42,375 nt of DNA from a virus (taxonomy: Duplodnaviria > Heunggongvirae > Uroviricota > Caudoviricetes): IMG/VR virus record IMGVR_UViG_2802429217_000003. The stretch is one strand, 5' to 3'. The position numbers are program-made. Below are positions 15,001 to 21,000 of the stretch, piece after piece. Position 1 is the stretch's first letter; every line of letters starts with the position of its first letter.

Positions 15001-18000
15001 CTTCTGCTCTGGCGTGTAGTTAATCCGAGTTCTTCGTTTCATGGCAACGTCCCCCTTGATTAAGGATAGCGTTGCATCCACTGATTGAACTCACAGCCGG
15101 AAGCGGTCATTCTAGGTCTTTCGAGGAATAGTGAGCACTATATTAATATCTGGCTTATATCTGAGCACCTAGGCGCTTGAAAGATGTGTTACCCTGCGAT
15201 TATACAGTGCGAGATTATTAGTCTCACTTATAAATCTCTAAAATTTAAAGATGCAATGTAATCCTCTTTATAGTAGATTTTCTAGTATGGGGAAGCCACG
15301 TTTTAAGTGCGGTTTGACCAATTTAATGAGCGTTATAACTCATCAATAATAGTTACATGGAGTTGTTTAATGTTTTTATTTTTTCACTCTGAACAAACTG
15401 AAAAAAACACTAGTTATTACAAGGGGTTACTTTTTGAAGAGTTGTTAAAAGAATACTTGGAAGGCTCTGGATACGACATTGAGTTAAGGAAAAAAGAATC
15501 TAGTTTAGAGTACGACATTGAAGGATTCTCTAGAGCAACTGGCCAAAAGATTATTGGCGAAGCTAAAGCACACAGCAAAAGCATGAGTGGACAAACAGTT
15601 GCTGCGTTCGTTGGAAAGCTTTTGCCGCTAGGTCTTCTGGAAAAAAAGGTGCATGGATTATTTCTGTCATTATCACCATTAACACCGGAGGCGGAAGATT
15701 ATTTTCGAACTGTCGAAAATATGGGGTTAACGACAAAGGTAGGAAAGGAACTTTATAACCAAATAACTGCGACTTTGCATTTGCCGACTGAAACATCTCT
15801 ACATAAGGAAATTAAAGGTTATGACCTTGTGGCCCCAAACATTCTCAAGACTGATACGGGGTTGTATAAGTTATTTATTTTAAAAGAGGTAAATTCAGGA
15901 ACGCCATCAAATTTTGTGGTATTCAATAAAAGTGGCAGCCAAATTGATGATGAAAGATTTTTGGAAAATTTAAAAATAGGGATTTCAGAACTTGCTGGTT
16001 TGGATTTCATTATGCCTAGCAAGAAAAAAATAGTTGACGAAATGCCTCAAGTAAAGCGTGAAATAGTTCGAGGATTAACTGTTGGGACTGAATGGGCTGA
16101 CTATAGGCTACCTGCAGGGCCAACTGTGTTCGTTGGCAGGACTGAATTCATAGGTGAACTTCTTTCTCACATCAAACATAATGAGCTACCACATGTTCTT
16201 CAGATAAAAAGTCGCTCTGGAGTAGGAAAAAGCTCTCTTGTATCCTTTTTAGAAAACAAGCTCTCAATGGATGGGGTTATTACTGAATTACATGACTCAA
16301 GGGATGTAAAAACAATATATGATGTTTTTTATCTTGTTCAGAGGTTTACCCAAAGCAGCATTATTGCGACTAATTTTATAGAACTTGATGAACAACTGAA
16401 AGACTTGCAACTTTCACTAAATGGCCAAAAGGCAGTTTTCTTTGTTGACCAATTTGAATCTACATTCTCGAATCCTGACATTTTCGATTGCTATGAATAC
16501 ATTGCGAACTCAATAACAAAGCTTCGTGGTGGTGTATACATAGTGTTTGCGCGTAAAAATGATCAGCTAACAACCTATGACAACAGTAAAGTTTCTCTTA
16601 ATAGAATTAATCAGCTATCGAAAAGCTTTACTCTTCCGGATTTTGAAAACAAAGAATCAATACTTCTTTTAGAAAAAATAAATGAAAATAACTCTAATAT
16701 TCTCAGTAAAGAAATACTACCCTATATTATTGAATTTGCGCAGGGTTTTCCTTGGCTTTTAAAGAGAACGATAGCTCATGTTTTAAAACTCACTCGAAAA
16801 GGTGACTCTCAGAGGGATTTAATCAGTGCGGGCTTAAAACTGAACGACCTTTTTGAAGAAGAGCTTGAAGGTTTGGATGAGATTGAAAAAGATTATCTAG
16901 TTAAGATTGCAGCTAAGCTACCAGCAGATTTCAATGAGCTTCAATACCAATTTGACGAAGACCCAATGCTTGTAAAAGTCCTCGATAAGTTAACAGCTTA
17001 CAGATTGGTACGCTTGAGTGGTTCTACCTACGATACTTATAACGATGTTTTCAAAGAATATCTTGTCTACCAAAAGCTTCCTGAATTTAGACTGCTGGTT
17101 ATTTATAGAATGTATCCAAGCTCTGTTATATCCCAGTTTCATAAACTGATAACAATGAGAAAGCTGACAATTACAAAAATAACGGAAAATCTAAATGTAA
17201 GGGAAGGTTACGCATTTAATCTCGTTAAGGAATTGCGGAATTTAGACTTGCTTGATGCAGTTAAAAGTGGTGAATGGATAATTCCAACCAATGTTAGGGA
17301 TATATATTCTCAAGGAACCCTTGCTGGTTATCTACGCCGAAAAATTTTAGACAATCAACTCGTCGAGACTTTACTTAAAAAAATTCTTTCTGGAGAAAAA
17401 GTTTTCGAGAGCGATATACCCACGTATTTTTCTGAGTCTTATCCTTTTATTGAGGCATCAGAGAAAACATGGGGATTATACTCTACGATTTTAAAGTCAT
17501 GGTTACTTGCCCTAAAAATTATAGAAATTGATGGGGAAGGTCGCATTATTGCCTCAGATGTGTCGCATAATGATGCAACAGCTGAGTTAGGAAATCTTAA
17601 GAAAATTTCGGGCTTAAGGGCAGGAAATAAAGGGCTTTTCTTCCCTGTAACATCTCACGCTAAAATGATTGAAGTTACCAGCTTGATACTGAACGGTAAA
17701 GAGCCTACTGGAAAAGAAGCGCTTAAAGCAAAATCTGATTTAAATAATGCTGGTGTTTTAGTCGATGGGCACTTAGCAGTATCTAATATTGAAGAGCTTA
17801 ATGAGGCACTTACAGCTCAAATACTTGATGACGGCTATGAGGATTTCTGGAAAGCAATACACGCTGGTCAGCCTTGTTATGAAATTTTTAAAGGTATTGC
17901 AGGGGAAGGATTAACTGAGTCCACCCTTAAGTGGCGCTTAAGAAAGTTAACGGCTTTAGCAAAAAAACTGAAAATCATACCAAACAAAAGATTCAAATAT

Positions 18001-21000
18001 TAATTACTGTCATAACATTAAAAAGTAGCGGATGTATTCCTCCGCTACATAACTTATACTCAAGGAGTGATTATATTGAATATTTTCAAAGCCTGTGGGG
18101 GCATCAATGTCCGCTCTTCGCTCAAAGCGGACTAAAATGTTGGCTTGTGTCTGACTCAGCGCATTTAAGGAAGTGGTGGTGGTGACGGGGTGTTGTGTCC
18201 CATTTCCACAGAATAAATCAGAGAAACTATAGCGGCTGTAATGGCAATCTATGGTCTTGCTATTGCTCTTATGGATCACCTTTCTGATTGATTTCATATT
18301 GGCGAGGTAACGGGAGTTAAGTAGAATAGCTGCGGGTGCTTGAGGCTGTCTGCCTCGGGCATGAACACCAAAGGCAGATAGAGAAAAGCCCCAGTTAACA
18401 TTACGCGTCCGGCAAGACGCTTAACATTAATCTGAGGCCACATCTATGCTTTGCATACGTAGATTAGCCTCTTACCGACCAAAAGGTCAAGGAGAAGCAG
18501 GCTATGAAGCAGCAAAAGGCGATGTTAATCGCCCTGATCGTCATCTGTTTAACCGTCGTTGTGACGGCACTGGTAACGAGGAAAGACCTCTGCGAGGTAC
18601 GAATCCGAACCGGCCAGACGGAGGTCGCTGTCTTCACAGCTTACGAACCTGAGGAGTAAGAGACCCGGCGGGGGAGAAATCCCCCGCCACCTCTGATGTG
18701 TCAGGCATCCTCAACGCACCCGTACTTACCCGCTTCGGCGGGTTTTTTGTTGTGGTGGATAAATTAGCTTTTTGTGTACTCTTTTAGCCGTAAGTCTTGA
18801 GGGACTGACTGTTGTAAATAGAATCGTGTTTGCTTAGTTAGCGCGCAGGGAGAAGAGGGATGGACCCTTCAGGGGAACGCTATTAATCTGGAAAATTTCT
18901 ATTTATGGATTTCAAGAAGTTGCGCAAAATTTTTAATAAAGATGGTCTCTATGCTGTGCGCGTTGAAAATGGGGAAATTATTAGTTGTTACTGCATTCAT
19001 TGCTCACGGGCTTTGCAACAGCCTAGTGGGGCTATGTTAATATATCTCTTGAATGGGCATGTGACGGACGGATTTATGTTGCGTGAAGATGAATTTGTCA
19101 CATCATTACGGACATTAAAAGAAATTGGATTAAAAGCTGGCTTTTCTGCTTTTGAAGACGATTGAACTCATCTACAATTCAGCGCAGGGTTGACCCCCTG
19201 CTGAGTAACACCGTGCCACCGGAGAAAGCCGATGGCACATATACAACTGATCAAACATACCTCTTCTGGATTACTGCTCCCGGCAACACCGGAGAGTTGC
19301 GAATTCTTGCATCAAATAAAAATAGGTGAGTGGATACACGCTGATTTTAAGCGCGTTCGTAACTACGCATTTCACAAGCGTTTTTTCAAACTCCTGCAAC
19401 TCGGATTCGATTATTGGACTCCTGTCGGTGGGGCGATCACCTCTCGTGAACGAAAACTTGTGTCCGGTTTCGTTGATTATCTGTGTGACTCGGTCGGCCG
19501 GGAACATACGCCAGCCCTGAGTGATGCCGCAGAACAATATCTGAATACCATTGCGATACGCAGAACCTGTGATACGGCATTGCTAAAGTCATTTGATGCT
19601 TTCCGTGAATGGGTAACTATTGAGGCCGGATTTTACACCGAGCATTTTTATCCGGACGGTAGCCGTGGACGCAGGGCAAGATCTATCGCGTTTGCAAATA
19701 TGGACGATACCGAGTTTCAGCAGGTTTATAAATCCGTACTGAATGTGCTTTGGAACTGGATCCTGTTCCGTAAATTTTCCTCTCCGGAACAATTCGAAAA
19801 TGTTGCTGCGCAGCTGCTGGAGTTTGCGTAATGGTGGATTTGCGTAAAGCGGCTAAAGGCCATATGTGTACAGTCAGAATCCCCGGTTACTGCAATCACA
19901 ATCCTGAAACATCTGTGCTGGCGCACTACAGGCTGGCGGGGACGTGTGGAATGGCGATAAAACCACACGATATGCAGGCAGCGATTGCCTGTAACTCATG
20001 TCACGATCTAATCGATGGGCGGGTAAAAACCAGCGATTACACCAAAGAAGAATTGCACCTGATGCATGCAGAAGGTGTTTTTCGCACGCAAGAAATCTGG
20101 AGAAATGAGGGATATTTATGATTTACCCAACAAATATCGGAAAAAGCGGGGAACATCTCCGTCTCGCAACACTGGAAAGTGTGTGGATTCAGGGAAAGTT
20201 ACGCATGTGGGGACGCTGGTCGTATATTGGCTGCGGCAGGTCAGGGAATATGTTCAACCAGTTGCTGGTGTCAAAAAAAATAACACAAACAGCTATCAAT
20301 GAAGCCTTGCGCAAAATGAAAAAAGCGGGGATTGATAAACCTGAACTGGAGGAATTTTTTCGGGAGCTGATTAACGGTAAGCAGAAAAGCTGGCTATCCC
20401 ACTGTACTGATGCAGAGGCGTTATGCATTGATCGGGTGATTAGTGAAGTGTTGGCAGAGCATCCAGGATTGATTCACGTACTCCGACAACGGTATGAAGG
20501 ACGGGGGATGACAAAGCGCAAAATGGCTCAATTGCTAAATAACGCACATCCAGAGTGGAGTTTCAGTACATGCGAAAAGCGAATTGCTAATTGGTTAGCT
20601 GTTGCTGAGTATTCTTTATACATTCCCATGCGAGTATCATTTGCTCAGAAAATAGCTTGATTTTTTACGCAAAAACTGCTCTAATTCTGATACGCTTCGC
20701 AAAGCTGTATCGCGAGGTGGATAAAGAAAATCAAATTTAAAAGAACCCGCCACCGAGCGGGTTTTTTTATCCATAAATATAGAATGAATACTAGAAATTA
20801 ACAATTTCTATTTTCTTATGCTGGCTTATTCTGTTGAATGATTCGTGAATCAACTCAGGGATTTTTATCTGATTGAGGTGTTTCATGTTTCGGCATTGTT
20901 AGCTTTTGTAGGCTTTTCCATATATTTATAGATAATTAAACTGGTGCAGTAATTCACCTGAGAAGTTTGCAATCCTCTAATTAACCTTTTTATTTGTATT

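Follow-up and report, generated by a model that had tools for sequence, protein, structure and literature searches.

What does the long, AT-rich open reading frame (ORF) in the cargo region of a Rac-type prophage encode, and how might its product act? The prophage was found in IMG/VR virus record IMGVR_UViG_2802429217_000003 (Caudoviricetes), a stretch of 42,375 nucleotides that was analyzed as a whole and is called the window here. The protein encoded by the ORF, referred to as Mrr-STAND in the following, combines a Mrr-type nuclease with a STAND NTPase. It is probably a single-polypeptide antiviral STAND (Avs, bacterial NLR-like) immune protein that travels as cargo of Rac-type prophages and acts as an abortive-infection nuclease. 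What the analysis shows directly are the folds of the domains, catalytic and NTP-binding residues that are intact, a tripartite layout, organization as a single gene, and residence in hotspots of defense genes and mobile elements.

An AlphaFold2 model of the protein (mean pLDDT 83.3, pTM 0.63) was built on an alignment of 46 homologues with identities down to 41%. The effector is N-terminal. The Pfam profile Mrr_cat (PF04471) matches residues 22–121 with 28.2 bits (cut-off 21, E 2e-6, profile positions 9–106 of 115) and is also recorded in most of the homologues. The modelled nuclease core has the order alpha-beta-beta-beta-alpha-beta, with E23 in helix 1, D49 in strand 2, and E64 and K66 in strand 3. 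The motifs EYD49IEG and GE64AK66AH make up the PD-ExK triad, and the candidate catalytic residues E23, D49 (15514–15516), E64 (15559–15561), and K66 (15565–15567) are invariant in the 46 sequences. The nuclease is followed by a beta-rich linker domain (residues 136–240) for which no Pfam match was found.

The central part of the protein is the NTPase. Pfam nSTAND1 (PF20703) matches residues 252–427 with 33 bits (cut-off 27.1); nSTAND3 and the other AAA models in Pfam scored under their cut-offs. The nucleotide-binding domain (NBD) contains FVGR at residues 254–257, GVGKSS at 284–289 (K287, 16228–16230), VDQFE at 359–363 (D360, 16447–16449), and a sensor-1-like arginine, R395. Residues G256, R257, G284, K287, S288, D360, R395, G459, and P461 are invariant in the alignment. 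The list of STAND motifs that Leipe et al. are said to have compiled in 2004 includes Walker A, Walker B, an hhGR motif upstream of the P-loop, and a GxP motif in the helical domain; this set is complete in Mrr-STAND. The NBD is joined to a helical domain (HD1) and a winged-helix domain (WHD) in a three-domain core like that of NLRs, AP-ATPases, and ORC proteins, and NLR and ORC are structural neighbors of the NTPase. The original prediction, which was made from the sequence alone, had proposed a Mrr-type PD-(D/E)xK fold followed by a STAND NTPase; for both, Pfam profiles above their cut-offs and structure comparison agree. The motifs it had quoted (EYD/IEG, GEAKAH, SRSGVGKSS, VDQFE, and AQGFPWLL) are all present, and their key residues are invariant in the 46 homologues.

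The C-terminal 307 residues complete a tripartite layout of N-terminal effector, central STAND NTPase, and C-terminal sensor. The absence of an obvious TPR sensor and the winged-helix-like C-terminus had also been predicted correctly: a large repeat-type sensor (TPR-like, WD40, or FGE, at least 400 aa) was not found, and the module is made of winged helices. In a search of 1.84 billion cluster representatives, the C-terminal module alone matched 78 proteins. In nearly all of these it is located at about residues 570–880 of proteins of 880–950 aa, fragments aside; in a few shorter proteins of 660–830 aa, it is placed earlier, and no Mrr_cat match was found. In a sister subfamily with proteins of about 915 aa, Mrr_cat and nSTAND1 are retained, but only the proximal half of the C-terminal module is shared, and the proteins end in AAA_assoc_C. 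The sequences P0041, P0046, P0048, P0075, P0113, and L012 (the last at 89–3277 in a Geobacteraceae metagenome-assembled genome) have 200–300 extra C-terminal residues; the extensions are AP2-like or consist of four HA domains, and that of L012 is unassigned. Such naturally occurring extensions of the sensor may be a clue to the class of ligand.

Regional conservation was measured as column identity to the query among the 33 members less than 50% identical to it. HD1 and WHD together (16690..17079) form the best-conserved part of the protein. The values are listed with the coordinates of the features in Table 1.

Table 1. Features of the Mrr-STAND locus and domains of the encoded protein, with positions in the window.
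Feature	Residues	Positions	Strand	Column identity	Description
Mrr-STAND gene		15370..18003	+		Mrr_cat, beta linker, nSTAND1 NTPase (NBD-HD1-WHD), C-terminal tandem winged-helix module
PD-(D/E)xK nuclease core, Mrr-type effector	1–135	15370..15774	+	0.57	Pfam, invariant residues, AlphaFold2 model
Beta-rich linker domain	136–240	15775..16089	+	0.31	Three strands and one helix in AlphaFold2 model; fast-evolving
NBD	241–440	16090..16689	+	0.48	Five-stranded P-loop fold (AlphaFold2 model)
HD1	441–503	16690..	+	0.59	Invariant QGFPWL 458–463 (GFP, 16744–16752), GxP-type
WHD	504–570	..17079	+	0.72	STAND winged-helix domain, invariant YDTYNDV
C-terminal module, putative sensor	571–877 (307 aa)	17080..18000	+	0.32	Compact tandem winged-helix array; basic, fast-evolving
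Shine-Dalgarno sequence GGAG		15359..15362	+		7 nt before ATG 15370, read from sequence
Co-mobile cargo block, 6.18 kb		11954..18133			534-aa gene, IS30 remnant, and Mrr-STAND gene; fills DUF977-hokD slot
Predicted membrane protein, 534 aa (RefSeq 505 aa)		12153..13757	+		PHROG 13820, function unknown, full-length match
Degenerate IS30-family element		~13894..15095	-		Frameshifted transposase, imperfect terminal repeats; context only
hokD/sok type I toxin-antitoxin		18334..18659	+		Right edge of cargo slot

We compared Mrr-STAND to characterized and predicted systems. In a Foldseek search, the best solved-structure match of the whole protein was Avs4 (EcAvs4, PDB 8dgf; Gao et al. 2022), with an E value of 9e-10; the alignment spans the Mrr-type nuclease region (residues 1–135) and has 12% identity, and the TM-score is as low as 0.2. 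Avs4, like Mrr-STAND, contains a Mrr-type nuclease, a STAND NTPase, and a C-terminal sensor in one polypeptide, a match that favors the Avs/NLR-like logic originally suggested for the gene. However, Avs4 has about 1,540 aa, and its large TPR sensor holds on to the portal of the phage, whereas Mrr-STAND has 877 aa and a winged-helix sensor. Mrr-STAND also has the extra beta linker domain, and its NTPase belongs to the nSTAND1 clade. No sequence relationship between the two was detected with the PADLOC Avs models or with the family profile against the PDB: neither the 46-sequence profile nor the single sequence matched any PDB chain, those of Avs3 and Avs4 included. In Avs8/PD-lambda-4 (Vassallo 2022; PMC12236752; PMC12803255), a Mrr-NTPase protein acts jointly with a second protein that has no known fold; the nuclease of this system needs ATP and Mg, and a phage protein is the trigger. 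Avs8 differs from Mrr-STAND in being a two-gene operon (A and B) that senses the HK97-fold capsid protein, whereas Mrr-STAND has no conserved partner.

The NTPase clade is shared with the nSTAND1-centered conflict systems (PMC8195603; PF20703), for which a counter-invader role was predicted by comparative genomics. Those systems use effector-associated or death-like adaptor domains and lectin or FGE sensors, and they often occur in multicellular bacteria and are targets of diversity-generating retroelements; Mrr-STAND is in contrast a compact fusion of Mrr, nSTAND1, and winged helices on enterobacterial mobile elements. The nearest known defense protein, according to the HHblits results of DefensePredictor, is Rst_TIR-NLR (Rousset et al. 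2022; probability 99.4). This system from the P2/P4 hotspots is, like Mrr-STAND, hotspot cargo of E. coli prophages and satellites. However, the likeness extends over just 37% of the protein, its NTPase; Rst_TIR-NLR has a TIR domain and not Mrr as effector, and a PADLOC hmmscan gave no match. Mrr and the winged-helix nucleases among type IV enzymes (DpnI-like winged-helix fusions, PMC11037411) also combine Mrr_cat with winged helices, and they too stand alone, with no neighboring methyltransferase; in Mrr-STAND, these domains come in the opposite order, with a STAND NTPase between nuclease and winged helices, and several winged-helix units are present instead of one.

In Avs3, Avs4, Avs7, and Avs8, ligand binding leads to ATP-dependent oligomerization, which joins the nuclease domains and results in non-specific DNA degradation. 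Avs4 is the presumed model here for ligand-triggered, ATP-dependent tetramerization and non-specific DNA cleavage, and we infer the oligomerization, the identity of the ligand, the substrate, and the anti-phage phenotype of Mrr-STAND. In the uninfected cell, the protein would be monomeric and auto-inhibited. An invader-derived ligand would bind the fast-evolving winged-helix module and perhaps the variable beta linker as well. Binding would free the NTPase, which would take up ATP and oligomerize through its NBD-HD1-WHD core, and the oligomer would gather the N-terminal PD-ExK domains into active nuclease dimers or tetramers. The nuclease would then degrade DNA indiscriminately, so that phage replication stops and the infected cell is lost.

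The original prediction had found no named defense family for the protein, and the searches agree. PADLOC v2 (v2.0.0) gave no match at E <= 1, the models of Avs1–5, PD-lambda-4, and Rst_TIR-NLR included, and there was no match in NCBIfam or PHROGs; defense-database hidden Markov models do not place the protein in a named Avs family (Avs1–5, Avs8/PD-lambda-4). Mrr-STAND has an Avs-like layout and, judged by these sequence comparisons, is outside the named Avs families compared (Avs1–5, Avs8/PD-lambda-4), with a small, non-canonical sensor. The claim that the gene is undescribed holds only in part. No experiment was found in the searchable literature; literature searches on the accession and on Mrr-STAND returned nothing, and the single-gene family is not described in the discovery papers on integron cassettes, the domain-centric strategy, modularity networks, and the trigger screen. 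On the other side, the nSTAND1 clade was named in 2021 by Kaur et al. within predicted counter-invader systems (PMC8195603), and the RefSeq name of the protein is either "restriction endonuclease" or "nSTAND1 domain-containing NTPase". DefensePredictor (Science 2026) lists WP_021536679.1 (877 aa, log-odds 6.17) as "Predicted novel defense gene"; this RefSeq protein of the family is 99.5% identical to the window protein. It is absent from part 1 of the three parts of DefensePredictor Table S6 (systems scored defensive). The novelty of Mrr-STAND is limited because it has already been flagged computationally by others. A 2026 survey of prokaryotic STANDs by Lee et al. distinguishes 589 clades and Avs7–24 and limits its sensor analysis to at least 400 aa (PMC12803255); the 307-aa module would fall outside that analysis if domain boundaries were drawn alike.

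A total of 293 homologues of the protein were found, mostly full length among the 120 matches listed. Full-length homologues with 38–48% identity occur in Bacillota, Bdellovibrionota, Cyanobacteria, Patescibacteria, Planctomycetota, and Acidobacteriota, and this span across phyla indicates a real, selected gene. Further matches come from Enterobacteriaceae, Vibrio, and Pseudomonas, plus Lokiarchaeota at 24% identity. As judged from these homologues, the thin but wide spread is a pattern characteristic of accessory genes that are exchanged horizontally. Of 5,426 complete E. coli genomes, 35 carry the gene at 99% identity or more. The 90%-identity cluster of the protein contains 424 sequences, including those from Hafnia alvei and Enterobacter bugandensis, and Pantoea also carries the gene (95% identity). 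A megablast search of 50,697 GenBank phage records with the gene gave no match; the IMG/VR search returned one contig, from the same prophage.

The ORF list of the window gives the gene as predicted, at 15370–18003. The frame is intact, with ATG at 15370, 877 codons, and a stop codon at 18001–18003. A longer start is possible at GTG 15307; ATG 15370 is favored because M1 is invariant across the 46 homologues, with F2 and F4 invariant or nearly so. A consensus scan of the plus strand from the IS30 element to the ATG found no strong sigma-70 promoter for the gene. In E. coli strain H2 (locus L001, 18065–20698), the gene differs by one base in length near its 5' end, and RefSeq annotates a shorter, 853-aa product that starts downstream; compared to the window gene, the DNA is 99.9% identical and the protein match is 99.1%. 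In some deposited copies, the N-terminus may therefore be annotated wrongly, or the nuclease domain may really be truncated.

The gene lies within a 6-kb stretch of 35–38% GC, with phage DNA of 46–54% GC on either side, as expected from the claim that the ORF is more AT-rich than the flanking backbone. The backbone is Rac-like, as confirmed by the RalA small RNA, antitoxin of the RalR type I toxin-antitoxin system, which is encoded at 1552–1730 on the plus strand (Rfam, 190 bits), and by intR, xisR, recET, kilR, and sieB in the matching RefSeq locus (L001). The predicted neighbors and setting were recovered as well: a frameshifted IS30-family insertion sequence (IS), a hok/sok module (from the RefSeq annotation of the identical region and Rfam sok), and a prophage cargo island, which is here the variable defense-cargo slot between DUF977 and hokD. 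The IS30 ORFs are on the minus strand at 13952–14548 and 14575–15081, and RefSeq describes a frameshifted transposase with an internal stop; the imperfect ends were located by eye, and a repeat finder detected none. Rfam sok matches 18334–18509 with 105 bits, a 51-aa Hok ORF follows at 18504–18659, and RefSeq annotates hokD.

The 6.18-kb block occurs with 98.7% identity in seven Rac-type prophages at ttcA, and also outside the Rac backbone in many E. coli genomes (at least 24). The one non-Rac locus inspected, in strain C311, looks like an integrative island. In sister Rac-type prophages (L009, L010, L011), the contents of the DUF977-hokD slot change from strain to strain: AbiH and SIR2 genes, an anti-phage dGTPase with MBL-fold and DUF4145 genes, or an ABC-three-component (ABC-3C) system. 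Because defense genes are held there in the sister prophages, we consider the DUF977-hokD interval of Rac-type prophages at ttcA a variable defense-cargo hotspot. Several unannotated hypothetical genes in the slot could be further defense candidates. Beyond the Rac prophages, a solo Mrr-STAND homologue is found in a Pantoea conjugative element, another in a Vibrio integrase island, and one between antiterminator Q and the lysis genes in a prophage with a P22-type Cro. One homologue is located next to an integrase, a TIR protein, and AbiU2; another is near GmrSD_C and Mrr/NA-iREase1 genes.

Several observations weigh against a receptor of the Avs type. The C-terminal module is made only of winged-helix units and is not TPR-like, and the winged helix is better known as a nucleic-acid-binding fold. 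Structure comparison gave the longest matches of the module to the DNA-recognition domain of the nickase N.BspD6I (201 aa) and to BrxA (147 aa). With a family mean of +7 for the net charge and 8.9 for the pI, the module is basic, the remaining parts of the protein being acidic or neutral. Relatives of 1080–1185 aa append DNA-associated AP2 domains or four HA domains at the C-terminus. Because the sensor is a basic winged-helix array and longer relatives add AP2 or HA domains, the ligand may not be a phage protein. To these points are added the absence of a PADLOC match, the lack of an experimental phenotype for the family in the searchable literature, the location of some homologues among housekeeping genes, and an only modest enrichment of defense genes among 82 neighbors in 8 distant loci.

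The basic winged-helix module with its DNA-binding matches and the AP2 and HA extensions would also suit the main rival explanation, an NTP-gated, type IV-like restriction enzyme. Its winged-helix array would bind invading DNA (modified bases, unusual structure, or ends) directly, the STAND NTPase would couple binding to assembly, and the Mrr domain would cleave the bound foreign DNA; immunity would be direct and not abortive. Mrr itself consists of a winged helix and Mrr_cat, type IV systems have been proposed in which winged helices are fused to PD-(D/E)xK or Mrr_cat and to an NTPase (PMC11037411), and "restriction endonuclease" is the RefSeq name. The E. coli loci contain no adjacent methyltransferase, in keeping with an enzyme that depends on modification. 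We nevertheless regard this explanation as unlikely: the NTPase is a STAND switch (nSTAND1, hhGR, GxP, and the NLR and ORC neighbors) and not a McrB-type GTPase or a helicase motor, winged helices also serve protein contacts, and no winged-helix unit of the C-terminal module matched the DpnI-type readers of N6-methyladenine. Every STAND-nuclease fusion characterized so far senses proteins (PMC12803255). On a related reading, unlikely as well, the array would sense nucleic acid directly: the protein would be an NLR-like STAND of bacteria whose ligand is invading DNA or RNA (a modification, a structure, or an end) and not a phage protein. If true, type IV restriction logic would be joined to oligomeric activation of the NLR kind, at half the size of the classical Avs receptors.

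The genomic context bears on two other explanations. Mrr-STAND and the 534-aa membrane protein encoded upstream could together form a two-gene system, the two genes having been split by the IS30 insertion. The 534-aa protein has several N-terminal hydrophobic helices and a soluble domain of about 380 aa, its gene is AT-rich, and it has no Pfam or PADLOC match and only noise in NCBIfam. In every E. coli copy inspected, both genes move together in the 6.18-kb block with the same IS30 remnant, and Avs8 provides a precedent for a Mrr-NTPase with an accessory gene (PMC12236752). However, tblastn matches to the 534-aa protein were confined to L001, L002, and L027; the 26 other, non-E. coli loci with a Mrr-STAND homologue gave no match, although they include copies at 95% (Pantoea), 92% (prophage L028), and 75% and 67% (Vibrio) identity. 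A separate hairpin follows the stop codon of the 534-aa gene, about 410 bp would lie between the genes even without the IS, and the PADLOC models for PD-lambda-4 match neither protein. Because it is absent from the 26 loci, the 534-aa gene was rejected as a partner and is considered a fellow passenger, and a two-gene system is improbable; the 534-aa gene may be an independent defense or exclusion gene. The other explanation is that the gene has no immune role and is kept by mobile elements, its product being either a selfish module (addiction or toxin) or a STAND regulator like MalT, with winged helices that bind operators. This is also improbable. The PD-ExK triad is invariant over more than 40% sequence divergence, which suggests a working nuclease, needless in a regulator; no cognate antitoxin or conserved neighbor was found; the slot is common to recognized defense genes; and a fast-evolving sensor is typical of immunity. 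An Avs-like, single-gene immune protein remains our preferred interpretation.

Toxin genes are found elsewhere in the window. A 259-aa protein resembling the A subunit of heat-labile enterotoxin, which ends in KDEL, is encoded just downstream of the lysis genes (23908–24687, plus strand), and RefSeq names its counterpart in sister prophages "enterotoxin A family protein". An overlapping 130-aa ORF (24650–25042, plus strand) has a signal-like N-terminus and is placed as a B subunit would be. Together, 23908–25042 looks like a prophage-borne LT-II-type toxin operon; prophages with such operons have reportedly been described by Jobling in 2016. A second AB-type toxin pair lies in an AT-rich islet at 21049–21774 and 21856–22299 (plus strand). 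One member is an ADP-ribosyltransferase resembling pertussis toxin (RefSeq "scabin-related ADP-ribosyltransferase"), the other a "subtilase family AB5 toxin binding subunit"; in other sister prophages, eplA/eplB take the place of the pair.

Among prokaryotic proteins, the STAND/NLR-like receptors of bacteria correspond most clearly to the innate immune sensors of animals and plants. Those characterized so far are large, have repeat-type sensors of at least 400 aa, and recognize phage proteins. The Mrr-STAND family is compact, single-gene, and easily cloned, and has a small sensor of a different fold. It circulates among Enterobacteriaceae on prophages and islands and is currently missed by defense-annotation databases. 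The DUF977-hokD hotspot of Rac-type prophages can be mined for more defense candidates.

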